From positions 1-64,000 of IMG/VR virus record IMGVR_UViG_3300003316_000080: a DNA stretch of 64,000 bases; one strand, 5' to 3'. A model generated the notes under the pieces. It did no database searches, had not been told where the DNA came from, and worked only from the letters and a program-made list of their open reading frames with translations. Below, piece by piece: positions 11,641 through 39,865 of this stretch. Position numbers and translations under genes: made by a program. Origin of the DNA: a virus. Positions within the stretch are counted from its first letter, which is position 1. Each line of letters begins with the position of its first letter.

Positions 11641-14274
11641 ATGTCGTTTTTCTTCGCAGAGACAAAGCGCGCCAAGAAGACAGGCGCTCCGTCGAAGAAG
11701 GCCGTGATCCCCATCGCAAGCCTGCAGCGTGCCGGCTGCACTGTATGTCCGCGCAAGGCAGACTGGGACGACGGCATCAAGACGCCACAGATGAAACCGG
11801 CCGGCCATCAGTCGCCGACGGTGTATCTGCTAGGCACGGCCCCGTCTGAGAAGGAAGACCGACTGGACGAGCCCTTTGTGTCCACAGCCTATGAAGAGGT
11901 GCTGTCGAAGTTGCCGGCGTCTCTGAGGCGGTATAGCCGCGTCGGCTATCTGACGCAGTGCAAGGCCGCCAGTAAAAACTTGATGCTGGAGATGTCGCCG
12001 GACCACGCGGAGATCGAGTGCTGCCGTCCTCGCGTGATCGCAGACATCGAAGAGACGAAGCCGATTGTCGTGATCGGCATCGGCGACAAAGCGCTTAATT
12101 GGGCCCTCCCCTTCTCATCGGGCGTCACCTCGATCACGCATCGAGGCACCTTGTTTCCGGTGAAGTTCGGGACGCACACGTGCTGGTTTTACAGCGTCAT
12201 GTTCCCGGCATATGTGCACCGAGAAAAGCGCAAGTATCCGACTGAGTACGAGATCGCGCTGACGCACGACCTACGCAATCTCGCTAAGTTGATCAACAAC
12301 GAAGAGATTGGTGTTCCGAAGATCTACGCAGACAAGTGGGAAGAGGGTATCGAGATCGTGACAGGTCACGATGCCGGAGACTTCCAGCGTGTGGAGCGCG
12401 CACTTGCAGACATGGCAGCGCTGCCCGATGTCGCACTCGACATCGAAACCAATGGCCTGCGGCCCTGGCACTTGAACAAGCCCAGGTTGTGGACTGCCGC
12501 AGTAGGCACATTCGAGCGTGTGATCGCCTTCCCGATTGATCATCCTGACGGCTGGGGCGCTGACGCGCGCATCCGCAAGATGCACGGTCTGTTCGCTGAG
12601 TGGCTGTGGCAATCGCGCCGGAAGTGGGCACATAACCTTGCAATGGAACTGGAGTGGTTTAACTGGTTCTACAGTCCGCACGCGATCATGGGCAATGAGT
12701 GGGGCGACACGATGGCCCTTGCCCATGTACTCGACGAGCGCAAGGGCACGAAGTCATTGGAGGTGCAGACGATCATTGGCGCCGGCTTCAACCTGAAGTC
12801 CATGAGTCCAGTTGATCCGTCGTTGCCTGACTGGATCAGTAAGTACCCGATTAAGACGGTGCTGAAGTACAACGGTGGAGACTCGAAATGGACGGACTTC
12901 CGTCGCCGCCAGCTGCAGCCGATCGTGGAGGCCGACGAAAAGCTCCATGACGTCTATCAGCACAAGATTCGAATGGCGCCGGCTTTGATCCTCACAGAGG
13001 CCAAGGGCCTACCGGTGTCTGTGCCGCGTGCTGAGAAGATGAATCGCGCACTGACGGAGCAACTGCACAAGATTGAAGACAAGCTGCGGGCTGATGTGGC
13101 TGTGCGCCGCCATACAACGCAGTTCGGCCAGTTCAGCCCGACGAACTCCGATCATGTGCTCGCGCTGATGGAAAAGACCCTCAAGCGCGATGAGATCTAC
13201 ATCATTGAGAAAGACGGGTCTGAGTCGAAGTCAGTCGCTGAAGAAGTGCTGGCGCTGATGCCTGAAGATGAGGTGCCATCAGCGAAGTTGATCCTGGAGC
13301 ACCGGGGCATCTCCAAGCTGAAGTCGACGTATCTGGAGCCAGTGATCAAGGGCACGATGATCAGCGTCGATGGCTATGTGCACTCGAAGTACAGCAGTCT
13401 GTTCGCCGCGACCCACCGCCTGAACTCTGAAGATCCCAACGCGCAGAACTGGCCTAAGCGCAAGCACAAGGAAGTTCGCTCGATCTTCTACGCGGAAGAT
13501 GATGAAGAGATTCTGGCGTGCGACTACGGCCAGATCGAGTTCCGCGTCGTGGGCATGTGCTCGGAGGACGACAACCTGTGCCGGGCCGTGTGGACCGGGT
13601 ACGACGTGCACTTGCACTGGGCAGAGCGGATCGTCGCCCTGTATCCCAAGATCAAGGACTGGATCAGATCAGAGTTCGAGGTGGACTGGGATGAGAAGGG
13701 CATCAAGACGCTGCGCCAGGAGGCCAAGAACAAGTGGGTGTTTCCGCAGTTCTTCGGTGCCTCGATCAAGTCGTGTGCAGCCTCTCTGCACTTGCCTGAA
13801 GAGGTCGCGCAGGATCTGGCTGATGAACTATGGGATGAGTTCCGAGGCGTCAAGCGCTGGCAAGACAAGTTGATGGAGTCGTTTGCGCGCAAGCTCTACG
13901 TGGAGACGCTGGACGGTGCGCGCCGTCGTGGGCCCATGACCAAAAACGAGATCATCAACATGCCGATCCAGGGCACAGCGGCCCGCATCGTGCAGACCGC
14001 GCATGCAGCTTTGGCTGAACGCGGCTTCATCATGGATCGCGGCGTGTATATCCCATCGCTGAACGTACATGATGACCTCTCAACCTGGAGCAAGAAGGCA
14101 GAGCGGGAGGCCAACGTGAAGATCATCGTCGAAGAGATGTGCAAGCACCGATTTGACTGGATCAACGTGCCGCTGCTGGTGGAAGTGTCGGCCGGGCCTG
14201 ACTGGTCCGACCTGACCGAGATCGGCAAGTACAGCAGCCATGAGCTGTTCAACATCAGGAACCCTTACCAATGA
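11641..14274 (+). CDS. polA: family-A DNA polymerase with N-terminal UDG-like (family 4) domain and 3'-5' exonuclease domain
   Basis: Exo I LDIETNGL; motif A DYGQIEFRV; motif C VHDDL; N-terminus YLLGTAPSEKEDRLDEPFV with Cys cluster resembles Fe-S UDG. Confidence 0.85.
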   Translation: MSFFFAETKRAKKTGAPSKKAVIPIASLQRAGCTVCPRKADWDDGIKTPQMKPAGHQSPTVYLLGTAPSEKEDRLDEPFVSTAYEEVLSKLPASLRRYSRVGYLTQCKAASKNLMLEMSPDHAEIECCRPRVIADIEETKPIVVIGIGDKALNWALPFSSGVTSITHRGTLFPVKFGTHTCWFYSVMFPAYVHREKRKYPTEYEIALTHDLRNLAKLINNEEIGVPKIYADKWEEGIEIVTGHDAGDFQRVERALADMAALPDVALDIETNGLRPWHLNKPRLWTAAVGTFERVIAFPIDHPDGWGADARIRKMHGLFAEWLWQSRRKWAHNLAMELEWFNWFYSPHAIMGNEWGDTMALAHVLDERKGTKSLEVQTIIGAGFNLKSMSPVDPSLPDWISKYPIKTVLKYNGGDSKWTDFRRRQLQPIVEADEKLHDVYQHKIRMAPALILTEAKGLPVSVPRAEKMNRALTEQLHKIEDKLRADVAVRRHTTQFGQFSPTNSDHVLALMEKTLKRDEIYIIEKDGSESKSVAEEVLALMPEDEVPSAKLILEHRGISKLKSTYLEPVIKGTMISVDGYVHSKYSSLFAATHRLNSEDPNAQNWPKRKHKEVRSIFYAEDDEEILACDYGQIEFRVVGMCSEDDNLCRAVWTGYDVHLHWAERIVALYPKIKDWIRSEFEVDWDEKGIKTLRQEAKNKWVFPQFFGASIKSCAASLHLPEEVAQDLADELWDEFRGVKRWQDKLMESFARKLYVETLDGARRRGPMTKNEIINMPIQGTAARIVQTAHAALAERGFIMDRGVYIPSLNVHDDLSTWSKKAEREANVKIIVEEMCKHRFDWINVPLLVEVSAGPDWSDLTEIGKYSSHELFNIRNPYQ

Positions 14275-24133: not shown

Positions 24134-24363
24134 AGATCACTGACGTGTCCAACAAGAAGACAGTGGTGTGTGGCTTCACATGCTGGCATTGCCGCCGCGT
24201 GGTGTTATCTGGTGGCGCCGCTGAAGTCGTCGAGATCTCGATCAAGTTGCGGCCGGGCGCTGACAGACGTGAGCGTGCAAACCGCCTGAGAATGGCCCGT
24301 GCTGAACTGCGCCATGCCCTTGCTATATTCCGCGCCAACAAAGAACTTGAGGACCTCGCATGA
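24130..24363 (+). CDS. hypothetical small Cys-containing protein
   Basis: GTG start overlapping upstream stop; VVCGFTCWHC. Confidence 0.35.
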   Translation: MKITDVSNKKTVVCGFTCWHCRRVVLSGGAAEVVEISIKLRPGADRRERANRLRMARAELRHALAIFRANKELEDLA

Positions 24364-26852
24364 GTGTGCGTTGTGTTGACTGCCTTGTGGGCCTGCGCCA
24401 GCTTCCAGATGCATCCGTTGATGCCATCGTCACGGATCCGCCCTACGGCCTGAGCGAGCAGAAGCCAGCGGAACTCGCTGCTTGCATCGCTGCATGGCTG
24501 GCCGGCGAGGTCTACCAGCCGAAGGGCAAGGGCTTCATGGGCAAGTCCTGGGACGCCTGGGTGCCTGGGCCCGAAGTCTGGCGCGAGTGCTTCCGCGTTC
24601 TCAAGCCGGGCGGACACATCCTGGCCTTCGCCGGCACGCGCACGCAGCACTTGATGGCGCTGTCGATGGCCCTGGCTGGATTCGAAATCAGGGACATGAT
24701 CGCCTGGGTGTATGGCTCCGGGTTTCCGAAGTCGCTGGACGTGTCGAAGGCGGTCGACAAGGCAGGCGGAGCCTCGCCCGTCGAGCAGGCTGAACTGCTG
24801 CGCCGCAAGCGCGTGGCGGCCGGCCTGACGCGAGAGCAGGTCGCGGAACACTGCGGGTGCACTCCATCGAGCGTTCGAGACTGGGAAGAAGGCCGAGCGC
24901 GCGCCGTCGGTGCCGCCGTTGAGTTCATCGTCCCGAGCGACGAGTACCGCACCAAGCTGGCCGACTTGCTCGGTTACAGCGTGGACGAGCGCAAGCTGAT
25001 TGGAACCTCGGCTGACCGGCGCGGCGATGGCACCGTCTACGGGGTGGGCCACAGCGGAGAGTTGCGCGCTGGCGGCAACACCGACGCTGCCCGCCAGTGG
25101 GAAGGCTGGGGCACCGCCCTGAAGCCGGCCCTTGAAACGGTTACTTTCGCTTCAAAGCCGTATACCGAAGAGCAGGAACGGAGTATAATTCAATCGAACC
25201 TAATTCGATTGGAGGCCCGTTTATGGTTGCTGTCGTCTGCGAGTGCTGCGGAAAAGAGTTCAACGTCAAGCCAAAGCGAGTACGGCGCGGCGTGCGCTAT
25301 TGCTCAATGGAGTGCCGACGAAATCACCAGTACACGGGCCGCTTTGTGCGGTCAGATGGATACGTCGCTGTTCGAGTGGGCAGCGACTACCAGCTTGAGC
25401 ATCGTGTCGTCATGGAGGCGCACATTGGTCGAAAGCTGGAGCGATGGGAGCACGTCCACCACCGAAACGAAGTCAAACACGACAACCGACTCGAGAACCT
25501 TGAAATTCTCACTGTCGCAGATCACGCCGAGCACCATCATCAAGGCCTGCAGCCTTCCCGGTGGGTTCAATGCGAATGCCTCCACTGCGGAAAGCCACTT
25601 CAACGCCTCGCTGTTGTTGTTGCAAAGCATCCGCACACTTTCTGCGACCGAGCCTGCTATATCGCAGGCGCAGCACGAACACCTGGGCGCGGGCGTAAAG
25701 CCGAACCTTGATCCATGCATCATGGCGCGCAAGCCGCTGGTCGGAACGGTCGCGGCCAACGTTCTGGAGCACGGGACGGGGGCGCTGAATATCGACGGGT
25801 GCCGCGTGGGCGATGAGGAGCGGGTGAACGGCGCCGGATCTGTGACCTCGCTTCAGCGTCAATCACGGGTCGCGGCGGGATACCGCGATGATGCTGGCGT
25901 TGGCCCAGGCTCTGACGCGAAGACCGTTGTTGGCCGTTGGCCCGCCAACCTGATCCACGACGGCAGCGACGAGGTGCTGGCGGCGTTCCCGAACGCGCCT
26001 GGTCAACTCGCGACGGCGAGCACCAGCGACACGCAGCGCTCCGGACAGAACACCTACGGTGCGATGACCCGTGGCAGCACGGGACAAGAACCGCGCGACG
26101 AGCTCGACAAGAGCGCCGCCCGATTTTTCAAGGAGTGTGCATGGGACGAACCTCGATCTGTTGCGAGCACTGCCGCGCAGCCTTTGTGCCTGCAAAACCA
26201 AGTCGCCGATTCTGTTCAGAGCGCTGCAGCAACTTGGGCCAGCCTCGCGGGAATACTCTCAAACGATTCGAAGGAACGTTCTATGAACGTAACTCCGATC
26301 GAGTCAAGAGCGATCGCAGAAACCGTTATCACTGCGACGACGAGTATCGCAAGCGGGTTCTCGCTCGAGTCGCAGCACGAAAGGCTCACCCCGTGCCGCA
26401 GCCTTGTGAAGACTGTGGTGCGCCGAACGCCGATCGGCATCACGACGATTACGACAAGCCTCTCTCGATCCGATGGAAGTGCCGGAGCTGCCACGTTCAC
26501 CATCACGCCGACGAGCTTGGATCGTGGGGATCTGGGCTCGCGGTTTGAGTACTGCGCCAAGGCTAGCAAGAAGGATCGCGGCGAGGGTAACAACCACCCT
26601 ACTGTCAAGCCGACCGCGCTGATGCGGTATCTCGTCCGCCTTGTTACCCCTCCGGGTGGCACTGTACTTGATCCTTACACGGGCTCTGGTTCAACAGGAG
26701 TGGCCGCGCAAGCGGAAGGCTTCAAGTTCATCGGATTTGAGAATGACCCTGCTTCTTGTGCGATTGCAAACAGGCGAATGGGACTCACGGGCCTGCTTGC
26801 TGTGAACAAAGAGCGCCGCCAGCTGCGTCTTCGCAAGCAGTTGATTGAGTGA
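24360..26852 (+). CDS. N6-adenine/N4-cytosine DNA methyltransferase (DPPY...FxGxG order), interrupted by two HNH cassettes; 830-aa open frame
   Basis: N-terminal AIVTDPPYG, VLKPGG; C-terminal HPTVKPTALMRYLVRLVTPPGGTVLDPYTGSGSTG; intervening frame is S/T-rich. Confidence 0.65.
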   Translation: MSVRCVDCLVGLRQLPDASVDAIVTDPPYGLSEQKPAELAACIAAWLAGEVYQPKGKGFMGKSWDAWVPGPEVWRECFRVLKPGGHILAFAGTRTQHLMALSMALAGFEIRDMIAWVYGSGFPKSLDVSKAVDKAGGASPVEQAELLRRKRVAAGLTREQVAEHCGCTPSSVRDWEEGRARAVGAAVEFIVPSDEYRTKLADLLGYSVDERKLIGTSADRRGDGTVYGVGHSGELRAGGNTDAARQWEGWGTALKPALETVTFASKPYTEEQERSIIQSNLIRLEARLWLLSSASAAEKSSTSSQSEYGAACAIAQWSADEITSTRAALCGQMDTSLFEWAATTSLSIVSSWRRTLVESWSDGSTSTTETKSNTTTDSRTLKFSLSQITPSTIIKACSLPGGFNANASTAESHFNASLLLLQSIRTLSATEPAISQAQHEHLGAGVKPNLDPCIMARKPLVGTVAANVLEHGTGALNIDGCRVGDEERVNGAGSVTSLQRQSRVAAGYRDDAGVGPGSDAKTVVGRWPANLIHDGSDEVLAAFPNAPGQLATASTSDTQRSGQNTYGAMTRGSTGQEPRDELDKSAARFFKECAWDEPRSVASTAAQPLCLQNQVADSVQSAAATWASLAGILSNDSKERSMNVTPIESRAIAETVITATTSIASGFSLESQHERLTPCRSLVKTVVRRTPIGITTITTSLSRSDGSAGAATFTITPTSLDRGDLGSRFEYCAKASKKDRGEGNNHPTVKPTALMRYLVRLVTPPGGTVLDPYTGSGSTGVAAQAEGFKFIGFENDPASCAIANRRMGLTGLLAVNKERRQLRLRKQLIE
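25137..25712 (+). mobile_element. 576-bp HNH endonuclease cassette inserted in MTase, flanked by ~42-bp imperfect direct repeats
   Basis: flanks 25119-25160 and 25695-25736 (AAGCCGGCCCTTGAA vs AAGCCGAACCTTGAT); AT-rich leader with TATAAT 25184-25189 and hairpin 25191-25211. Confidence 0.6.
25223..25711 (+). CDS. HNH homing endonuclease (HNH_3-like)
   Basis: ATG 25223 with GGAGG SD; DGYVAVRVG...YQLEHRVVMEAH...HHRNEVKHDNRLENLEILT; different frame from MTase. Confidence 0.8.
   Translation: MVAVVCECCGKEFNVKPKRVRRGVRYCSMECRRNHQYTGRFVRSDGYVAVRVGSDYQLEHRVVMEAHIGRKLERWEHVHHRNEVKHDNRLENLEILTVADHAEHHHQGLQPSRWVQCECLHCGKPLQRLAVVVAKHPHTFCDRACYIAGAARTPGRGRKAEP
26130..26548 (+). mobile_element. second HNH endonuclease cassette inserted in MTase
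   Basis: flanked by degenerate copies of MTase RFF(Y)CAKAS segment (SAARFFKECAW upstream, GSRFEYCAKAS downstream). Confidence 0.5.
26141..26548 (+). CDS. HNH endonuclease (small, zinc-ribbon N-terminus)
   Basis: ATG 26141 with AAGGAG 5 nt upstream; CEDCGAPNADRHHDDYDKPLSIRWKCRSCHVHHH. Confidence 0.7.
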   Translation: MGRTSICCEHCRAAFVPAKPSRRFCSERCSNLGQPRGNTLKRFEGTFYERNSDRVKSDRRNRYHCDDEYRKRVLARVAARKAHPVPQPCEDCGAPNADRHHDDYDKPLSIRWKCRSCHVHHHADELGSWGSGLAV

Positions 26853-30983: not shown

Positions 30984-31403
30984 ATGGACGAAAAACGCAA
31001 ACGTGGTCGGCCGGCTGGAGCAATGAACAAGCTCAGTCAGGAGGCTGTCAACCTCGCAAAGCAGACAGGTAAGTTGCCCCATGAGATCTTGCTAGAGATC
31101 GCACGGGGCAATCCCATTTGTGTGCTGAGTATGGAAGAAGGCGTTCTGAAGCCTGTCTATGTCATGACAGATCCTGCACAGGTGCTTGATGCAGCAAAGG
31201 CAGCAGCACCGTACTTCGCGCCGAAGATTTCTACAGTTGAAGTGATTGCAGGGGTATCTGACCATGAACTTGATCGCATCATTGCGCTCGCTGCCGCCGA
31301 AGCAGGCATTAGCCTTGGCGCTAGCGGAGAAGGCGAAGAGACAGAGGAAGAGGAACCAACTGAGCGAAGCAGCCGAAAGGGCCGTAGACAGCTACGCGAG
31401 TGA
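30984..31403 (+). CDS. putative terminase small subunit
   Basis: position directly upstream of terL; N-terminal basic KRKRGRPAG; 3' end overlaps terL by ~158 nt, so true end uncertain. Confidence 0.4.
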   Translation: MDEKRKRGRPAGAMNKLSQEAVNLAKQTGKLPHEILLEIARGNPICVLSMEEGVLKPVYVMTDPAQVLDAAKAAAPYFAPKISTVEVIAGVSDHELDRIIALAAAEAGISLGASGEGEETEEEEPTERSSRKGRRQLRE

Positions 31404-33111
31404 AGCAGAGGGGCCTCCTGTCCCTCTGCAGGTTTCCTCAGTCGTACTAGACGACACGCACGTAATCAGCCAACTGCTTACAACAGGCAAGTTGTGTGCG
31501 GGTCCGTCTGCACAGCACATCCGCTACAAGATCTACTGGGGCGGTCGTGGTGCTGTGAAGTCGTGGGGCATGGCAGAAGCACTAGTACGTCTGGCAGCTG
31601 CCAAGCCTCTACGCATACTGTGCTGCCGTGAGTTTCAGAACTCGATCAAGGACAGTGCACACAAACTGCTGAAAGACACGATCGAGAGACTTGGTCTGTC
31701 TACGTGGTTCACTGTCACTGCCGACAGCATCAAGTCTCGTGTCGGTGCAGAGTTCATGTTCAAAGGCCTGCACAACAACGAGAACGGCATCAGGTCGACT
31801 GAAGGCGTAGATATCTGCTGGGTGGAAGAAGCACACAGCGTTACTGCACTTAGCTGGCAGAGCCTACTGCCCACGATCCGTGGTGACGAGTCAGAGATCT
31901 GGATCTCGTTCAACATGGTCGAAGAGAGTGATGCTACGTACCAGATGTTCGTAGCAAATGAACGCCCTCACTCGATCGTTCACCACATCAATTACGACAG
32001 CAATCCGTTCCTACCGAAAGTGCTCCGTGATGAAATGGAGCACGACAAGAAGACGGACTACGCGCTGTACGAGCACATCTGGCTGGGCAAGCCTCGCAAG
32101 CGTAGTAACGCAATCGTCCTCAACGGCAAGTACCGCATTGAGGAATTCCCAGATGATCTGTACGAACACGCAGATAGGTTGTTCTTCGGTGCTGACTGGG
32201 GCTATGCAGAAGATCCGTCCACGCTGGTGCGTTGCTTCATCCTGAACAACAAGCTGTACATCGAGTACGAGGCATACGGCAAGCACATCGAACTGAACGA
32301 CTACGCTGCGTTCTATGACCAAGTGCCCGGGTCACGTGACTGGCCTATCTATGCCGACAGCGCGTTGCCAGCAACGATCTCGCATGTGCGCGGTCTGGGC
32401 TTTGCGATCGATGCGGCAGAGAAGTGGCCGGGCAGTGTCGAAGACGGCATCAAGCATCTGCGGGGGTACGACGAGATCATCATTCACCCGCGCTGCAAGA
32501 TGGCGGCCGACGAGGCTTACAAGTGGCGGTACAAGGTCGACAAGAAGGTGCTGGATGCCAACATGCAGCCACTCGTACTGCCCACGCTGGTAGACGCACA
32601 CAATCACTGCATTCCGGCTGGCGTGCTTGTGTCTACTGCGTGTGGCGATGTGCCTATTGAGCAAGTACAAGTAGGCGACCTCGTGTGGACGCGTGTTGGT
32701 CTGCGTCCTGTGTTGTGGGCAGGTGCCACAGACACGAACCGTGAAGTGCTGGAGATCACGTTGTCATCTGGTCATGTAGTGCGCTGCACTCCTGACCACG
32801 AAGTCTTCGTGAATGGTGAGTTCATTCGTGCAGACGCTGCTCAGGTGTCTGACAACATGAACACACTCGACAGCACGGCACATGGCAGGCGAATTGGCAC
32901 TGCGTCTGTAGTCTCTATCACTCGCATCGCGGAAAAGGCTGATGTTGTCTATGACGTAACGGTCGATGGACAACACGAGTTCTTCGCGAATGGTGTGCTG
33001 GTTCACAACTGCTGGGACGCGGTCCGGTACGCCCTACATGGCTACATCCCCAGATCGGGTGAGATGGGCGTGTGGAACAGACTAGGCGCCCAAGCTCTGG
33101 GACAATCCTGA
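31246..33111 (+). CDS. terL: terminase large subunit carrying a 134-aa mini-intein
   Basis: Walker A GGRGAVKSWG, Walker B DICWVEEAH; intein between DAHNH and CWDAV; exact start uncertain. Confidence 0.8.
   Translation: MQGYLTMNLIASLRSLPPKQALALALAEKAKRQRKRNQLSEAAERAVDSYASEAEGPPVPLQVSSVVLDDTHVISQLLTTGKLCAGPSAQHIRYKIYWGGRGAVKSWGMAEALVRLAAAKPLRILCCREFQNSIKDSAHKLLKDTIERLGLSTWFTVTADSIKSRVGAEFMFKGLHNNENGIRSTEGVDICWVEEAHSVTALSWQSLLPTIRGDESEIWISFNMVEESDATYQMFVANERPHSIVHHINYDSNPFLPKVLRDEMEHDKKTDYALYEHIWLGKPRKRSNAIVLNGKYRIEEFPDDLYEHADRLFFGADWGYAEDPSTLVRCFILNNKLYIEYEAYGKHIELNDYAAFYDQVPGSRDWPIYADSALPATISHVRGLGFAIDAAEKWPGSVEDGIKHLRGYDEIIIHPRCKMAADEAYKWRYKVDKKVLDANMQPLVLPTLVDAHNHCIPAGVLVSTACGDVPIEQVQVGDLVWTRVGLRPVLWAGATDTNREVLEITLSSGHVVRCTPDHEVFVNGEFIRADAAQVSDNMNTLDSTAHGRRIGTASVVSITRIAEKADVVYDVTVDGQHEFFANGVLVHNCWDAVRYALHGYIPRSGEMGVWNRLGAQALGQS
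32608..33009 (+). mobile_element. mini-intein (Hint domain, no endonuclease domain) within terL
   Basis: starts with Cys (CIPAGVLV), block B TPDH, ends VYDVTVDGQHEFFANGVLVHN followed by +1 Cys; 402 nt in frame. Confidence 0.8.
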
Positions 33112-33136
33112 ATGTTTTCAACGAAGGGGAACTGAA

Positions 33137-35374
33137 ATGCCACGTGTCTTGACACCATCGCCTCTCACCGCCGAACTGCGTGCGGCAGGGTTTCCATGGG
33201 CAGATGATTCCGGTGTACTGCGCGCTGCCGATGGCACTGTCATCAGTAGCGGTGGGGGTGCGTCGACCTTCACTGCGCTGACGGATAGTGCGAGTGCAGA
33301 CATTCCTGCCACCAATGCACCGACAGCAGCAGCACTCGCTCTGAAGGCTAGTCTGGTGAATGGCGGTGTACCGACATCGCAACTGCCGCGATCCACTGCA
33401 GCCGTGACGCTCTCTGCAACGACGAGTGCAACTCCCACAGACGGCACCTTTGCTGCGCTGCCGGCGCAGGCGTGTACGGAACTGGAGGTATTCAACGACA
33501 GCCAAGTGCCCGTCGAGTACCGCCGTAATGGCGCCGGCAACGTCGTCACACTCCTGGCGAATCAGCGTCGCCGCATCCTCGGCATCACCGACGCCAGCCA
33601 GATCGCATTCCGGCGCTCTGACTACGCAGTGGCCGGCCGGACGCAGCCGACGACGATCTCTGTCCGTGCTCGCACGAACACGGACACGTACACGCTTGCC
33701 GGCACGCTGTCGATGGTGCTCAGTGGTGGTTCGTACACGGCGTTTAGCAGCCTCGCGTGTACGTCCATGGAGATCTTCAACAACTGCAACCACGACATCC
33801 TCTTCACGATCGACAGCGGCACGGCGTACAAGCTGCGTCACGGTGAGTCGGCTGTGATTCTGGGCATCGCCAACGCCAACCAAGTGCGTGTCAAGACCTA
33901 TGATTCGATCGCTCGTCAATCTCGCAATCTCGAGGCCGAGTGCTGGACGGTAGGTCTGGGTCGGGAGACGCTGAGTCCGTACCGTGCAGACGCCATCACG
34001 GCTGAAGCCGACATTCTCAACGGCGAGCCCAACTATCCGAACCTTCAGCCAATCGGCGCGGTCCTGACGCTGGGCAACCTGCGTCCTGTGCCGCGTCTGC
34101 GCAAGAAGCCGGTGGAGTTGGCGAAGTGGGATCTGGCGGCCAATGTGGTCACCAACCGTGCGGCTGACTTCGCTGACATCACACCGGCCGCTGTGGGCAA
34201 GGACGAGATTACCTTCGGCACCACGATCGTCGAGTACACGCAGTCTCAGACGGCGGAAGTACTGATCGCTCCTGCTGGTGTGCAGTCCACACCGGTCGAC
34301 GTCTCCAATGGCTCGATCCACTTCACGCATGTGTGGCCGGACAACGCCGGCAACAACTACGGCGTGAACGGGCCTTCCAGCTTCATCATCGAACTGCACA
34401 GCGCGGGCTCGCCGTCAGCGCCCACGGCCAACTACCACACCAGTGGCGTACTGAACTCGCTGAATGCGGGCTTCATGGGCGCGTCCACGCTGGGCTATAA
34501 CCTGCAGCGCTGCTTCTCTCTGCCGATCAACGCATTCACTGCGGCTGGCACGGGTGCTACGCTGACGGCGATCACCTGGGCCCGCATTCGCATCACGGGC
34601 CCGTCGGCGTCCAACGGCTGCAAGTTGCGCCCTGTCCGCCTCGACTTCGTGCCCAACGCGTTGACGAAGGGGACGGTGATCTTCACCTTCGACGACCTGC
34701 ACGCGGGCGCCTGGACCAACGCGCTGCCGATCATGTCGAAGTACTCGTACCCGGGCGTCCTGTGCATGGACACCACGGTCAAGATGGGCCAGTCAGGCTT
34801 CCTGACACCCGAGCAGATCATTCAGATGCACCAGACGTACGGCTGGGAGGTCGGCTATCAGGTCTATCAGAACGAAACGGGGTTCAACCTCAACTCCGAA
34901 TCCTGGATGCGCCAGGTCGGCAAGTGGGTGCTGGAGATGAACCGTCTGGGCATCCACGAGACGTACAACGGCTCGTACGGCTCGGGCACTGTGACGAACG
35001 TCGACGAAGAACGGCTGATGGCTGCTCGCCGTGCACTGTCGACGATGCGTCGCTTCACCAGTGGCACGAACACGTCCCCGCCCTTCAAGAACCCGGAGAC
35101 GGTGCCCTACGGCGACCCGTACAACCTGCGGTGCCTCAACATGAGCAGTGGCTTCACGGCCGGCACGATCTACGATCGCTGGAAGGATCACGTCGATCAG
35201 GCCGTTGCTGCAAAGGGCGTGGCGATCTTCGCGTGTCACAGTGAATTCAACGGCGCCGGTGAAGCGCTGACGGCACTCGGTACGCTCTGCGCGTACATCC
35301 GCACGCTGGAACTGGCCGGCAACTGCCAAGTGACCACCTTCGCCGGTCTGAACAAGCAGGCTTACGGGGTCTGA
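33137..35374 (+). CDS. large (745 aa) putative virion/host-interaction protein with beta-rich repeats and C-terminal polysaccharide-deacetylase-like region
   Basis: AAGGGGA SD; two internal repeats (ACTELEVFND..., ACTSMEIFNN...); C-terminal TFDDLHAG...PYG resembles NodB/CE4 motifs weakly. Confidence 0.5.
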   Translation: MPRVLTPSPLTAELRAAGFPWADDSGVLRAADGTVISSGGGASTFTALTDSASADIPATNAPTAAALALKASLVNGGVPTSQLPRSTAAVTLSATTSATPTDGTFAALPAQACTELEVFNDSQVPVEYRRNGAGNVVTLLANQRRRILGITDASQIAFRRSDYAVAGRTQPTTISVRARTNTDTYTLAGTLSMVLSGGSYTAFSSLACTSMEIFNNCNHDILFTIDSGTAYKLRHGESAVILGIANANQVRVKTYDSIARQSRNLEAECWTVGLGRETLSPYRADAITAEADILNGEPNYPNLQPIGAVLTLGNLRPVPRLRKKPVELAKWDLAANVVTNRAADFADITPAAVGKDEITFGTTIVEYTQSQTAEVLIAPAGVQSTPVDVSNGSIHFTHVWPDNAGNNYGVNGPSSFIIELHSAGSPSAPTANYHTSGVLNSLNAGFMGASTLGYNLQRCFSLPINAFTAAGTGATLTAITWARIRITGPSASNGCKLRPVRLDFVPNALTKGTVIFTFDDLHAGAWTNALPIMSKYSYPGVLCMDTTVKMGQSGFLTPEQIIQMHQTYGWEVGYQVYQNETGFNLNSESWMRQVGKWVLEMNRLGIHETYNGSYGSGTVTNVDEERLMAARRALSTMRRFTSGTNTSPPFKNPETVPYGDPYNLRCLNMSSGFTAGTIYDRWKDHVDQAVAAKGVAIFACHSEFNGAGEALTALGTLCAYIRTLELAGNCQVTTFAGLNKQAYGV

Positions 35375-35379
35375 TCGCC

Positions 35380-35721
35380 ATGGCAACAACACCCACTCCA
35401 GCAGCACGCACTCTTGTGGTGGGCCCGAGTGCTTTCCGCGTCATCGACTTCGGCAAGCAGGCTCAACTCGATCTGTGCTTTGACTGGTCGCAGACGACGT
35501 GGCTGACTGCGATCACGTCGTACACGCTGTCAGTTCCTTCTGGGCTCACCATCGAAGCAGAGAGCTTTGCCGACAAGAAGGTGACGGTCACACTGAAGTT
35601 CACTGATCCCACTGCGCTGTACGAAGGGCAGCTGTTCGATGTGGAGTGCGAGGTGATCACGAACGACACCCCTCCCCTGTCTGACACACGCAGCATCACC
35701 GTGCGTGCAGTCAGTCGCTAG
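35380..35721 (+). CDS. hypothetical protein
   Basis: ORF track. Confidence 0.45.
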   Translation: MATTPTPAARTLVVGPSAFRVIDFGKQAQLDLCFDWSQTTWLTAITSYTLSVPSGLTIEAESFADKKVTVTLKFTDPTALYEGQLFDVECEVITNDTPPLSDTRSITVRAVSR

Positions 35722-35943
35722 CGTGCGTATACTGGGAGCGGGCGGACCGGAACGCCGCCCCTCCTAGTCTTGTCTCCTCCTGCGATATAGAGCAAAGGGC
35801 TCCTCCTCACGGTGGGGCCCTTTCAATTTGTGCGTCTGACAGTTCGCCACTCCCCCAAAAGGGGGATGTAATGTCTTACAGGTTGACGCCGGACAATTCT
35901 CACGTTCCTTCAACGAACGTGCTCTATGAACAGGAGAACTGCC

Positions 35944-36054
35944 ATGAAATGGATGTACCGCTTCGGCCTCGCGGCCGTGCTCGCCTTCGTCTCTTCCCTC
36001 GGGCATGTCCAGGCCACGGACGCACACCCACAAGCACAGACAGCGCGGCAGTAA
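35944..36054 (+). CDS. small signal-peptide-like ORF (36 aa)
   Basis: ATG 35944 with AGGAG 7 nt upstream; MKWMYRFGLAAVLAFVSSLGHVQA; stop shared with CAGTAAA motif. Confidence 0.3.
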   Translation: MKWMYRFGLAAVLAFVSSLGHVQATDAHPQAQTARQ

Positions 36055-36065
36055 ACAGTTTCTGC
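36048..36065. repeat. CAGTAAA-palindrome motif copy (GCAGTAAACAGTTTCTGC)
   Basis: contains stop codon of small ORF; precedes terminator. Confidence 0.5.
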
Positions 36066-36073
36066 CGTATATA

Positions 36074-36108
36074 GGGCGCGGGAGCGATCTTGCGCCCTTT
36101 CCTTTTGG
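36074..36108 (+). terminator. rho-independent terminator
   Basis: stem GGGCGC 36074-36079 / GCGCCC 36092-36097, T-tract TTTCCTTTT; followed by GGAGAA and ATG 36116. Confidence 0.55.
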
Positions 36109-36115
36109 AGAACTC

Positions 36116-36721
36116 ATGAGCTACTCATTCACCAAGCGTGCTGCGACACGCTCAGCCTTGCTGGCGCTGGTCTGCCGTGAACTCGATGTGATCGCGAAGC
36201 AGCAACCCCTGCATGAACACGATTTCGACCAGATCCTGAGCAACTTCGCCAATGCCGCGTCACTGGTGGCGCCGGACAAGGATCGTCCCTACTCCGGCCA
36301 CATGCTGCAAGCCGCGCTGAACGGATATGTGTCGTGGCGCAGCCGCAAGCATGAAGGTATCGAAGAGCCCGAGATCGTCGGCGTCAACATCTCGTGCAGC
36401 GTGTCGTGGTGCCAGATGACGCAAGCCGAACTGGCGGACGAGGCTGCGACGCGTGTGAGCGACCCCAGCGTGTACGGCTCCGGCGAGGGTGCGAATCCCC
36501 AAGTGGGCAATCCGCCTTACGGACAGGAAGAAGGCAGCGCTTACACGCCGCCGATCAACACGCAGATGTCGGCCATGGAAGCTGCCATCACCCGTTCTGG
36601 CCCGGCGCACCAGCCCCGTGATGAAGGCCCCTGCGGCATCACGAACTGCGATGCTTCGTGTGACAACCACAAGGGCTGCAGTGGCCTGACTGACACCGGC
36701 ACCGGCCTGGGCACGGACTGA
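36116..36721 (+). CDS. hypothetical protein
   Basis: ORF track; ATG 36116 after terminator-RBS module. Confidence 0.5.
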   Translation: MSYSFTKRAATRSALLALVCRELDVIAKQQPLHEHDFDQILSNFANAASLVAPDKDRPYSGHMLQAALNGYVSWRSRKHEGIEEPEIVGVNISCSVSWCQMTQAELADEAATRVSDPSVYGSGEGANPQVGNPPYGQEEGSAYTPPINTQMSAMEAAITRSGPAHQPRDEGPCGITNCDASCDNHKGCSGLTDTGTGLGTD

Positions 36722-36723
36722 CC

Positions 36724-37107
36724 ATGGTCACTGGTGAGTACCCAGTGCCTGGGACGGGCACCAAGGCGGCTGGTGTGGACGTCGGCGCCATCGTGCAGTC
36801 GCGTGACGCTCAGTACGGCGGCTTCGCGAACGTGGCGCGTGTCACGCAGACGATCAAGCACATCATTCGCGAGGAAGCGGAAGGCAGTCGTTTCCGTGCG
36901 ATGACTGCCGACCAGCAAGAAGCCCTCGATATGATCGCTCACAAGATGGCGCGGATCATCTGTGGTGACGCTAACTGCATCGACTCGTGGGCTGACATCG
37001 CCGGCTATGCGAAGCTGGTGGCTGATCGTCTGCAGTCAAGCGACAAGCCGGCCTGCGGCAGCGCAAGGCCGATGACGCGTCCTCACGACATCGGCACCGA
37101 CCACTGA
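36724..37107 (+). CDS. hypothetical protein
   Basis: ORF track. Confidence 0.5.
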   Translation: MVTGEYPVPGTGTKAAGVDVGAIVQSRDAQYGGFANVARVTQTIKHIIREEAEGSRFRAMTADQQEALDMIAHKMARIICGDANCIDSWADIAGYAKLVADRLQSSDKPACGSARPMTRPHDIGTDH

Positions 37108-37124
37108 TCGACACTTGACCACCG

Positions 37125-37157
37125 AGGGCCCGTATACCTGCGGGCCCTTTTCATTTG
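37125..37157 (+). terminator. rho-independent terminator
   Basis: stem AGGGCCCG 37125-37132 / CGGGCCCT 37141-37148, loop TATACCTG, T-tract TTTTCATTT; followed by GGAGAAA and ATG 37168. Confidence 0.55.
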
Positions 37158-37167
37158 GAGAAACAAG

Positions 37168-37371
37168 ATGAACGAGAGGCTCACGGGACGGATACGACAT
37201 CGACTCGGGTATGAAAGTGCCGGAGGGTTTCGGCCGCCACGCGCTGTGTTGGTCCTGCAAGTTGAAGTGTCACGTGAGGACGGGCCGCCCGATGGACAGG
37301 GCATGCCTGCATATCTGGCTGCTGTCTATTGGCGTGATGCCCGTGTCGAAGACATGCACCTGATCACATGA
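37168..37371 (+). CDS. hypothetical protein
   Basis: ORF track. Confidence 0.45.
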   Translation: MNERLTGRIRHRLGYESAGGFRPPRAVLVLQVEVSREDGPPDGQGMPAYLAAVYWRDARVEDMHLIT

Positions 37372-37659
37372 ACATGCCAACCTGGGCTGACGTGGCGACC
37401 CTCGTCGCCTTCATCATTGCGGTTGCTGTCGTGGACCGCTTACTAGACTGGATGGACGAATGAACACACATGCTGCGGAAGGGCGCGCTCTTCAGTTGCG
37501 CTGCGCGTGTGAAGGCTGCGCAGAGGTTGCTGCCACACGGCGCCAACTGACTGCATATCATAACGACGATAGCAACTGGAACTAGTTGTGCTTGTGGCAC
37601 CAAGCTGAAGCCGATGCGTACTGGCAGGAACGCTGGGCTGACTACTATGGAGGTCTGCT

Positions 37660-37854
37660 ATGACTGAACTGACACGTGTCCGCAACGAAGAACGATGCAA
37701 GGCTGTGCCGGGCGCGTACATCACTGATGACGGACACGTGCTTGTGGACAGCACCAACGCAACGTCACCACTTGAAGTGCTGTGCGCGATCGCAGTGCTG
37801 GTGACTGCAAGGACAATGCGTCGGATGAAACACCCGCCCGTGCCGACACGATGA
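37660..37854 (+). CDS. hypothetical protein
   Basis: ATGGAGG SD; stop overlaps HNH start. Confidence 0.4.
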   Translation: MTELTRVRNEERCKAVPGAYITDDGHVLVDSTNATSPLEVLCAIAVLVTARTMRRMKHPPVPTR

Positions 37855-38306
37855 AGCTCACCAAGAAACAACGTGAAGCCCTTAAACAGAAGTTCGGGGG
37901 CTTTTGTGCATATTGCGGCTGCAAACTTGGTGAGCGCTGGCAGGCGGATCACATACAGGCCGTTCAGCGCAGTGTGCAGGGACATTGGGTGCGCCAAGAC
38001 CCTAGCAAGCGCTGGTCGCCGATGGTGTTCAAGCGCACCGGCGTCACTGTGGGTCGGCCGGAACTGGACATCCTTGACAATCTTGCACCAGCGTGCGGAC
38101 CTTGCAACGGCGATAAGTCCGATATGGACCTAGAGACGTGGCGCCATCGCCTCTCTCAAACATTGACCGTGCTGGGCAACAACTACGGTCGGTACAAAGA
38201 CGCCCTGCGCTTCGGGTTGATCGTCGAAACCCCCAAGCCCATAGAATTCCACTTCGAGCGGTGGCAACGGACCCCGCGCCGCCAACTGAAAGAGGACACC
38301 CTATGA
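37851..38306 (+). CDS. HNH endonuclease (packaging-associated position upstream of portal)
   Basis: CAYCGC...WQADHIQAV...NLAPACGPCNGDKSD. Confidence 0.8.
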   Translation: MKLTKKQREALKQKFGGFCAYCGCKLGERWQADHIQAVQRSVQGHWVRQDPSKRWSPMVFKRTGVTVGRPELDILDNLAPACGPCNGDKSDMDLETWRHRLSQTLTVLGNNYGRYKDALRFGLIVETPKPIEFHFERWQRTPRRQLKEDTL

Positions 38307-39865
38307 GCAACAAGGTATCCGTGCGCGCTGCCAAGCAAGCTGCCGTCCGGGAGGACACGCGGGCCCGTAAACAACTTACTGGTGATGCTCAGCCACAGCT
38401 AGGTGCAGTCACCACGATCGACAGCTTCCAGAACCTCGCTCATCGTCTGGGCGTCGGTGCGGATAACGTGCTGTCCTACGGCTCATATGCCTTCAACCCC
38501 CTCACACGCAACCGCGTGCTGCTGGAGTGGATCCACCGGGGCTCGTGGATCGGCGGGCAGGCGATCGACATCATCCCGGAGGACATGACGAAGAACGGGA
38601 TTGAGATCGAAGGCGAGATGGACCCGGCTGATGTGCAGCACATCGAGCGCATCGCCACTGCAACTGATGTGTGGGGGCAGATCAACGAAACGCTGCAGTG
38701 GGGACGCCTGTACGGTGGCGCTATCTGTGTGGCGCTGATCGACGGACAGGATCTGCGCACGCCCCTCAATCTCGATACCGTCGGCACTGGGCAGTTCAAG
38801 GGCCTGCTGACGCTGGACCGGTGGATGGTGGAACCTACACTGGAAGACCTCGTGACGGAGATGGGCCCTCATCTGGGTCTGCCGAAGTACTACCGCGTCA
38901 ACGACAGTGCCCCGGCCCTGCGTGGCCGTGTCGTGCACTACACGCGTGTGATGGTGCGGCATACGGGCATCAAGTTGCCGTACCAGCAGCGCCTGCAAGA
39001 GAACCTGTGGGGCATCTCGGAACTGGAGCGCCTGTATGACCGCATGCTGGCCTTCGACACAGCCACCATGGGCGCAGCACAACTCGTGTCCAAGGCGTTC
39101 TTGCGCACGCTGTCGGTGGAGAACCTGCGCGATGTGGTCGCTGCTGGTGGCAAGCCTCAAGCAGGTCTGTACAGCTACGTCGAGATGATGAGGCGCTTCC
39201 AGGGCGTAGAAGGCATCACGCTGATCGACGCCAAAGACAAGTTCGAGGCACAGGCAGGCGCCCTCACCGGCATGACGGGCATCAAGGAAGTGCTGCTGAG
39301 CCTTGCTGAGCAACTCGGCGGCGCGCTGCAGATGCCACTGACGCGATTGCTGGGCCAGTCGCCTGGTGGCCTGAACAGTGACGGCGACGGCGAGATGCAG
39401 ACGTACTACAGCGGCATCAAGCGGCGCCAGGAAAGAGATCTGCGCTTCGGCGTCAACACGATTTATCACCTGATCGCACGCTCGATCGGCATCAAGATTT
39501 CTGACGACGTCAACATCAGTTTCTGCGATCTGTTCGAGCAGTCTGACGACAAGAAGTCGGATATCGCCACGAAGACGGCGACGGCAGTCACGGAAGCCTA
39601 TGACGCCGGCTTGATCAATCAGCAGGTCGCTATGAAGGAACTGCGTCAGTCCTCGCGCCGTACTGGTCTCTTCTCCAATATCACCGCCGAGATGATCGAG
39701 AACGCAGACGAAGAGATCCAGGCGCCCGGCATCGAGGAACTGCAAGCGGCCATGAAGGCTGGAGGTACGGAAGATGGCAACAACACCCCGCCGAATGGGC
39801 AGCAGCAAGAGAAGCCGGTGGGAGCCGAAAAGACACCTCGCAAACAGCTACTACAAGCAACTTGA
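38303..39865 (+). CDS. portal protein
   Basis: ~520 aa, ATGA coupling to HNH, followed by MuF-like gene; assignment mainly by size and synteny. Confidence 0.65.
   Translation: MSNKVSVRAAKQAAVREDTRARKQLTGDAQPQLGAVTTIDSFQNLAHRLGVGADNVLSYGSYAFNPLTRNRVLLEWIHRGSWIGGQAIDIIPEDMTKNGIEIEGEMDPADVQHIERIATATDVWGQINETLQWGRLYGGAICVALIDGQDLRTPLNLDTVGTGQFKGLLTLDRWMVEPTLEDLVTEMGPHLGLPKYYRVNDSAPALRGRVVHYTRVMVRHTGIKLPYQQRLQENLWGISELERLYDRMLAFDTATMGAAQLVSKAFLRTLSVENLRDVVAAGGKPQAGLYSYVEMMRRFQGVEGITLIDAKDKFEAQAGALTGMTGIKEVLLSLAEQLGGALQMPLTRLLGQSPGGLNSDGDGEMQTYYSGIKRRQERDLRFGVNTIYHLIARSIGIKISDDVNISFCDLFEQSDDKKSDIATKTATAVTEAYDAGLINQQVAMKELRQSSRRTGLFSNITAEMIENADEEIQAPGIEELQAAMKAGGTEDGNNTPPNGQQQEKPVGAEKTPRKQLLQAT

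Follow-up and report, generated by a model that had tools for sequence, protein, structure and literature searches.

Does a segment of 134 amino acids (aa) within the large terminase subunit (TerL) of a virus constitute an intein, and could it still be spliced out? The question is posed by IMG/VR virus record IMGVR_UViG_3300003316_000080, of which positions 1 to 64,000 were analysed (64,000 nucleotides, nt; hereafter the window). The segment, at positions 32608-33009, is located in frame within a single TerL open reading frame (ORF; 31246/31264-33111), and translation of 31246-33111 on the plus strand is open throughout. A first-pass annotation made from the sequence had proposed a mini-intein here, naming a CIPAGVLV start, a TPDH motif resembling intein block B, and a FFANGVLVHN end followed by Cys. 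The translation bears this out: the segment comprises 134 codons, the motif reads RCTPDHEVFV, and the next codon (33010-33012) is TGC. In view of this and of the evidence presented below, we consider the segment very likely to be a true class 1 mini-intein, probably still able to splice, in the TerL of a tailed phage.

The positions that define the intein blocks (Table 1) were compared in an alignment of the window intein with seven homologous inteins (A3; eight sequences), in which the first residue after the intein (+1) is Cys in seven cases and Ser in one. Both Hint and intein profiles match above their curated thresholds, well outside chance expectation. The best-scoring profile on the 134 aa alone was Pfam Intein_splicing (PF14890; 53.9 bits, gathering cut-off 35.8, E 2.4e-14), followed by Hint_2 (33.9 bits; cut-off 28.4), and the cut-off of PT-HINT was exceeded as well. 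NCBIfam intein_Nterm (24.9 bits; cut-off 24.5) and intein_Cterm (26.1 bits; cut-off 15.6) cover intein residues 42-68 and 114-134, respectively. When the intein was compared with PDB sequences by phmmer, NrdJ-1, a Clostridium bacterial intein-like (BIL) domain, gp41-1, NpuDnaB and a RecA mini-intein were matched. The intein by itself gave no match in a word-indexed protein search; its relatives were reached via a full-length TerL search, tblastn and a pattern scan of IMG/VR. Assignment to class 3, which is characterized by a W-C-T triad, was considered and rejected: by eye, the V-Y-D position of block F is Asp116, Cys1 is present and no W-C-T pattern can be discerned.

The predicted structure leads to the same assignment. 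Given the eight-sequence alignment, AlphaFold2 returned an all-beta intein with a predicted local distance difference test score (pLDDT) of 92.3 and a predicted template modelling score (pTM) of 0.87. Foldseek comparison of this model with the PDB yielded 63 matches at E <= 0.001 and, among the matches listed, nearly all are inteins or HINT domains. NpuDnaB (4o1r) ranked first with a template modelling (TM) score of 0.81 and a root-mean-square deviation (rmsd) of 2.0 A, followed by the gp41-1 (6qaz, 6riz), Ssp DnaB (1mi8) and Mtu RecA mini-inteins. These solved proteins share the HINT fold with the window intein (TM 0.75-0.81, rmsd 2-3 A), are of similar size (127-145 aa) and have the same catalytic positions, whereas sequence identity is limited to 20-27% and the host proteins are different. 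In agreement with the designation as a mini-intein, Pfam detected no endonuclease domain in the 134 aa, and an HNH profile built from relatives of the intein found neither a nested ORF nor a remnant when run over 32608-33009 in every frame. A second intein of the same family was looked for elsewhere in the window and not found.

If the segment is an intein, homologous proteins should exist that simply lack it. The flanking sequences, ...TLVDAHNH on one side and CWDAVRYALHGY... on the other, had been described as continuous without the segment, and they are indeed contiguous in intein-less homologs, none of which, among those examined, retains residues across this region. The TerL proteins of Edwardsiella phage ZHS, Providencia phage PSTCR3 and Nitratiruptor phage NrS-1 show a clean gap of 134 columns between ...NH and (C/T)WDA/IDA, and the same gap is present in the metagenomic TerL proteins P0002, P0004 and P0005, between NH and C/T/I-W-D. 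The closest intein-less relative is P0002, with exteins 85% identical to those of the window. At the nucleotide level, where the alignment was anchored on the junction codons and the C-extein is short, the P0002 contig (L004) displays a gap of exactly 402 nt, in frame, and 50 of 60 nt upstream and 89 of 102 nt downstream are identical to the window. The sole difference at the junction is an ATC codon (Ile) in P0002 (L004:1742-3184) in place of the TGC codon for Cys+1. An invaded ATC allele could not support splicing, and P0002 may represent an intein-immune allele. We also asked about co-conversion: the flanks are 83-87% identical to the intein-less relative and the gene as a whole 78%, a difference that is uninformative on this point. 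The intein itself has a G+C content at third codon positions of 0.545. When 402-nt windows from 21 phage genes in this genome are ranked by the same measure (mean 0.737), this value falls in the bottom 0.8%, which is consistent with a foreign origin or with relaxed codon selection.

The enclosing ORF is, as the first-pass annotation had stated, a terminase large subunit, matching Pfam Terminase_3 (5e-39) and the NCBIfam family of PBSX-type TerL proteins (TIGR01547; 1.6e-50). We placed its start at 31264, because TerL homologs have the N-terminus M-x-L-I-x-S-L-R-S-L-P-P-K-Q in common and because P0001, an identical 615-aa protein encoded on a 67,482-bp metagenomic contig, likewise begins at this ATG. 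In the precursor, Pfam recognizes only the Terminase_3 ATPase domain and Terminase_3C goes undetected. Excision of the intein in silico results in a 481-aa TerL that gains Terminase_3C (30.9 bits; cut-off 26.7) at residues 311-458, spanning the junction at 448/449. The host protein fits the PBSX/Terminase_3 class, with a Terminase_3 ATPase, a Terminase_3C nuclease after excision, and three catalytic Asp residues and one His aligned.

The spliced protein also aligns through the junction to the nuclease of SPP1 G2P (2WBN; LVDAHNH-CWDAVRYA versus LEDKDNH-TIDATRYA), and this alignment covers the equivalents of G2P D266, D321, H400 and D403. His400 and Asp403 of G2P coordinate Mn2+, and both H400A and D403N disrupt nuclease activity, with D403N being inactive (PMC2685612). 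Judged from the alignment, the intein is located between the putative equivalents of these two residues, directly after that of His400 and three residues ahead of that of Asp403. Insertion splits the metal-binding H-x-x-D dyad of the nuclease, an aspect that was beyond the view of the first-pass annotation, and leaves the ATPase domain of TerL uninterrupted. Since His448 and Asp451 (in spliced numbering) come to lie three residues apart only after splicing, an inactive nuclease is expected for the precursor. The precursor would be without packaging nuclease activity until spliced, and splicing would be obligatory for packaging.

Table 1. Coordinates of the TerL intein, its host gene and related features (window positions unless a locus is named).
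Feature	Position	Strand	Description
TerL precursor gene	31264..33111	+	615 aa + stop; ATG at 31264; mechanical ORF start is TTG at 31246
N-extein	31264..32607	+	448 aa; ATPase domain and most of RNase H-like nuclease domain; ends ...LVDAHNH
His448 codon	32605..32607	+	last N-extein residue; SPP1 G2P His400 equivalent by 2WBN alignment
Class 1 mini-intein (very likely)	32608..33009	+	134 aa, Cys1 to Asn134
Intein block A, CIPAGVLVSTACG	32608..32646	+	N-terminal nucleophile Cys1 (TGC, 32608-32610); invariant in A3
Intein block B, RCTPDHEVFV	32782..32811	+	T61-x-x-H64; T61, P62 and H64 invariant in A3
Intein blocks F + G, VVYDVTVDGQHEFFANGVLVHN	32944..33009	+	D116, penultimate H133, terminal N134; Y115, D116 and N134 invariant in A3
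+1 Cys codon (TGC)	33010..33012	+	first C-extein residue; predicted trans-thioesterification nucleophile
C-extein	33010..33111	+	33 aa, CWDAVRYALHGYIPRSGEMGVWNRLGAQALGQS, + stop codon
Asp codon of C-W-D	33016..33018	+	SPP1 G2P Asp403 equivalent by 2WBN alignment
Methylase insert 1	~25136-25711	+	nested ORF 25223-25711, GGAGG upstream; HNH_3 endonuclease
Methylase insert 2	~26130-26555	+	nested ORF 26141-26548, AAGGAG upstream; HNH-like Zn-ribbon protein
Nested HNH ORFs, further loci	L008:1979-2632, L009:3081-3713, L010:3045-3701, L011:3069-3731		

The chemistry of class 1 intein splicing is well established, and we infer that the window copy follows it. Translation would produce the 615-aa precursor, in which Cys1 would carry out an N-S acyl shift at the His448-Cys1 bond. 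Attack of Cys+1 on the resulting thioester (trans-thioesterification) would then generate a branched intermediate, and cyclisation of Asn134, aided by His133, would free the 134-aa intein. A final S-N shift would leave an ordinary His-Cys peptide bond in the 481-aa TerL.

Where does an intein without an endonuclease come from? The first-pass annotation had treated the element on its own; comparison with its relatives places it in a large family in which full-length members contain an HNH gene in another reading frame and from which the window copy differs by having no endonuclease. Eight of the best 120 TerL homologs have an intein at the same site. Related inteins at this site are frequent in viral metagenomes, and the IMG/VR pattern scan recovered them at 63 loci. 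Automatic placement of both junctions succeeded for 38 loci, in all of which the intein adjoins D/K-x-x-N/D-H. Thirty of the 38 inteins measure 308-343 aa; the remainder comprise seven of 120-127 aa and a single one of 175 aa. The large inteins contain no in-frame endonuclease domain, and their middle part is of low complexity when translated in frame. They do contain, between blocks B and F, a conserved ORF of ~215 aa in the +2 frame, which encodes an HNH_3 endonuclease (Pfam 5.9e-14, 2.9e-13) with CxxC (Zn-ribbon-like) repeats. This nested ORF is present in 29 large IMG/VR inteins (E <= 1e-57, among loci L019-L075), in P0006, P0030, P0053 and P0107, and in the deposited Acinetobacter phage Highwayman (L005:2121-2768); the 175-aa intein (L023) retains a truncated remnant (E 2e-19). 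The last codons of the nested ORF read G-V-stop (G-L-stop in P0006). The stop is located ~17 codons of the intein frame ahead of the intein C-terminus, and its TGA would be formed by the TAT-GAY codons of V-Y-D in block F.

Besides the window, endonuclease-less inteins occur in P0003, P0110/P0117, L014, L015-L018 and L021. When the splicing domains are compared in a neighbour-joining tree, mini-inteins are interspersed with large inteins. The window intein pairs with the mini-intein of P0003, beside the large inteins of P0006, P0030 and P0107 (50-54% identity to the window intein). This scatter is compatible with endonucleases having been lost repeatedly during the homing cycle. The window copy is one of several independent endonuclease-less derivatives of this TerL nuclease-site intein family; having lost its HNH region, it would now be inherited vertically, without homing by its own means. 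A comparable layout was noted in Brucella phage R/C (L077:404-2950), whose Terminase_6N-type TerL of 848 aa has an intein in the ATPase region: the ORF at 1227-1913, annotated as 'putative HNH endonuclease', lies out of frame inside this intein, and the same layout is found in ~40 Brucella phage records. These phages provide a further example, from cultured viruses, of a TerL intein that contains an endonuclease gene in another frame.

Several points weigh against the reading of the segment as a splicing intein with this history. AlphaFold prediction from the single sequence was unusable (pLDDT 38.5), and the good model rests on the eight-sequence alignment. The closest intein-less relative has Ile at +1 and, because of this residue, gain of the intein in the window lineage cannot be told apart from its precise loss in the lineage of P0002. 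The tree of splicing domains is rough and carries no support values, and the claim that the precursor is inactive derives solely from homology to SPP1 G2P.

A sister TerL (P0241; 98% identical) comes from other contigs, the longest of which measures 66,225 bp; it has the same intein and helps to weigh the alternatives. According to the first of these, splicing is a conditional post-translational switch, governed by redox state, temperature, DNA or assembly, that licenses the packaging nuclease late in infection; the endonuclease-less intein would have been kept for this benefit, as a regulator, and would be neither a passive parasite nor a relic. TerL inteins have been suggested to splice conditionally (PMC5050341; PMC7156551), the junction nucleophiles are cysteines, and the insertion falls exactly within the catalytic metal-binding dyad with the ATPase left intact. 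However, inteins generally occupy conserved active sites, as homing endonucleases target conserved DNA, and position alone is therefore no evidence for a regulatory role. A conserved Cys1-Cys12 redox trap is unlikely because Cys12 is not conserved and is replaced even in the sister (C12L). Moreover, the closest relative, P0002, is without an intein, and all five mycobacteriophage TerL inteins that were tested spliced readily, mainly resulting in ligated exteins (PMC5050341). We therefore judge a switch to be unlikely.

Comparison with the sister also bears on the opposite possibility, namely that the segment is a decayed HINT insertion that no longer splices, leaving a dead TerL in a defective phage or remnant. 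Between the two proteins, 8 of 134 aa differ in the intein and 6 of 481 aa in the exteins (Fisher p = 0.004), so that the intein changes ~5x faster, and mini-inteins have no homing function that would keep them under selection. Yet none of these changes affects a catalytic position, and the catalytic residues are intact and conserved both in the sister and in relatives of 40-55% identity. Likewise, the ATPase and nuclease motifs of TerL are intact, and the window represents a dense, complete-looking phage genome with genes for a family A DNA polymerase, helicases, portal, protease/scaffold, major head and tailspike proteins. TerL is essential, and a phage could not survive with its H-x-x-D metal site interrupted by an insert that fails to splice; persistence of the intein in two diverged genomes hence argues for splicing. 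Retention of the catalytic residues despite the faster change of the intein, together with the intact TerL motifs and the complete-looking genome, supports continued activity, and we consider decay very improbable.

Still less credible is an autoprocessing domain of the BIL or Hedgehog type, which would cleave without ligation and thereby produce a TerL lacking its last 33 residues. It would account for the PT-HINT and Hint_2 matches and for the presence of a BIL domain (2lwy) and BIL2 among the sequence and fold matches, whereas the terminal H-N followed by Cys+1 is an intein signature and Intein_splicing outscored all other profiles. The host is also a conserved enzyme rather than a variable secreted protein, with the insertion falling in its invariant D-x-x-N-H / x-x-D-x-x-R-Y motif, and cleavage without ligation would destroy function, given that the C-extein holds the essential Asp403 equivalent and the conserved D-A-x-R-Y. 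Finally, an assembly or chimera artefact, to which the metagenomic source and the lack of nucleotide similarity between the TerL gene and deposited phages might point, is ruled out by the same intein in the sister on other contigs, next to an identical protein recovered from two sources (JGI and Logan) and an insertion that is exactly in frame at canonical junctions.

How does the TerL mini-intein compare with known systems? The first-pass annotation had referred to terminase as an intein hotspot, and the literature agrees: of 784 actinobacteriophage inteins, 293 reside in TerL, more than in any other host protein, and those of class 1 can be as small as 134 aa (bioRxiv 10.1101/2025.01.02.630785); TerL also harbors ~40% of mycobacteriophage inteins (PMC5050341). 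As in these phages, in which mini-inteins also arise via endonuclease loss, the host of the window intein is a large terminase (Kelley et al. 2016, PMC5050341; Gosselin et al. 2025). The mycobacteriophage TerL inteins, however, are confined to Terminase_1, Terminase_6 and Pham3880 proteins, where all seven sites lie in the ATPase domain (PMC5050341), whereas the window intein resides in the nuclease domain of a Terminase_3 protein. Out-of-frame homing endonucleases were first reported by the 2025 preprint, as endonuclease VII-like genes in frame 3 (bioRxiv 10.1101/2025.01.02.630785). The layout described here resembles these 'non-canonical' endonucleases, but the family is HNH_3 rather than endonuclease VII-like, the site is the TerL nuclease domain, and many of the viral contigs involved are non-actinobacterial.

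A mini-intein in the nuclease domain of TerL has already been published for Microcystis cyanophage Mic1 (PMC7156551). This second intein of the Mic1 TerL (MN013189) is likewise of class 1, carries no endonuclease, combines C1 with C+1, interrupts the H-x-x-D-A-x-R-Y motif and is homologous to the window intein (30.6% identity; tblastn). It differs in being inserted one residue downstream (DHL/CD versus NH/CWD; slashes mark insertion points) and in ending in S-N instead of H-N, and the Mic1 TerL belongs to a different family and contains an additional large intein in its ATPase domain. The TerL of Caudoviricetes sp. vir335, which is assigned to Methanomassiliicoccales as a virus (BK063680), shares the insertion point (FNH/CMDSLRYA) and has a mini-intein of 132 aa that is 38% identical to that of the window; in this case the host TerL is very divergent and stems from an archaeal virus, and the intein, which is unannotated in the record, ends in S-N. 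Homologous splicing domains (40-54% identity) are found in the full-length inteins of P0006, P0030, P0053, P0107, ~30 IMG/VR loci and Acinetobacter phage vB_AbaM_Highwayman. The metagenomic full-length members share the insertion site of the window and have Terminase_3 exteins, while the large intein of Highwayman is inserted four residues downstream (NHYIDA/CRYA). Unlike the window intein, which is without a trace of an endonuclease, the full-length members combine 308-343 aa with the nested HNH_3 ORF. What is somewhat unusual about the window element is the combination of a Terminase_3 host family with a site in the metal dyad of the nuclease.

Turning to the neighborhood of the gene, megablast of the TerL gene against deposited phages returned no match, and the phage has no close sequenced relative among them. 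A possible small terminase is encoded upstream of TerL by a 139-aa ORF (30984-31403), for which the sole match is a PHROG family without assigned function. The last 140 nt of this ORF extend, in a different frame, past the conserved TerL start, and its acidic low-complexity tail coincides with the TerL N-terminus. Downstream, ~5 kb (33137-38137) separate TerL from the portal gene (38138-39865), an unusual placement within a packaging/head module. This stretch includes a 745-aa ORF (33137-35374), which matches a PHROG of unknown function and, weakly, a polysaccharide deacetylase, as well as several small ORFs. On the opposite strand, two long ORFs, 32918-34399 (-) (493 aa) and 32764-33006 (-) (80 aa), run across the intein, the TerL end and the gene that follows; they show no sign of function and are probably a by-product of the 58-61% G+C content. 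The family A DNA polymerase (11641-14274, +; 877 aa) carries a fused N-terminal domain of the uracil-DNA-glycosylase superfamily (Pfam UDG, 2.7e-6).

A separate observation concerns an N6/N4 DNA methylase ORF of 830 aa (24360-26852, +), which is unrelated to the intein. Compared with the uninterrupted methylase of mycobacteriophage Paphu it contains two in-frame low-complexity inserts (Table 1), each with an alternative-frame ORF preceded by its own Shine-Dalgarno sequence, and the HNH profile built from the intein relatives matched an alternative-frame ORF in this gene (Pfam HNH_3 4.4e-9). The nested ORF of the second insert (26141-26548) displays a CxxC...HH...CxxCH motif by eye, and Pfam reports only a weak Zn-ribbon match. 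No Hint domain was found in the methylase ORF, and Rfam detected no group I introns in the gene at gathering or permissive thresholds. Insert 1 is flanked by an imperfect direct repeat of 27 nt (25109-25135 and 25685-25711; 74% identical), which duplicates a conserved LKPxxEP...ARKP motif. Positions 25078-25836 are 91% identical at the nucleotide level to the methylase gene of Cylindrospermopsis phage Cr-LKS3, whereas identity is mostly 76-79% over the rest of the alignable gene, apart from one 60-nt stretch at 92%; the high identity of insert 1 would be evidence for recent mobility. Most substitutions within the insert affect third positions of the HNH frame; in the flanks, third positions of the methylase frame are affected instead.

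The methylase frame is stop-free through both inserts (P = 0.003 and 0.04, synonymous resampling of the nested ORFs) and is open in the diverged homologs P0122, P0169, P0230 and P0150 as well. The inserts look like mobile endonuclease genes sitting in frame without an intein or intron; they may be translated as tolerated loops or removed by unrecognised means. In addition to an in-frame HNH insert, the methylase homolog P0150 (1007 aa; columns ~125-402 of alignment A5) has an element at a third site (WVYG/CLSEDSEVLT...VFLTGN/SGFPKS), which looks like a true intein and whose middle part is of low complexity in frame.

The finding overturns nothing in the current understanding of phage inteins. 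For annotation, it means that this TerL is to be recorded as a mature protein of 481 aa plus an intein of 134 aa, with a nuclease domain that is invisible to Pfam before excision. Small natural mini-inteins are useful raw material for protein engineering, and the full-length, 175-aa intermediate and mini forms of the family provide a natural series for the study of endonuclease loss. Given that the best-studied phage TerL inteins are all located in the ATPase domain, what the window adds to intein biology is a compact Cys1/Cys+1 mini-intein, very likely genuine, in the H-x-x-D dyad of the terminase nuclease.

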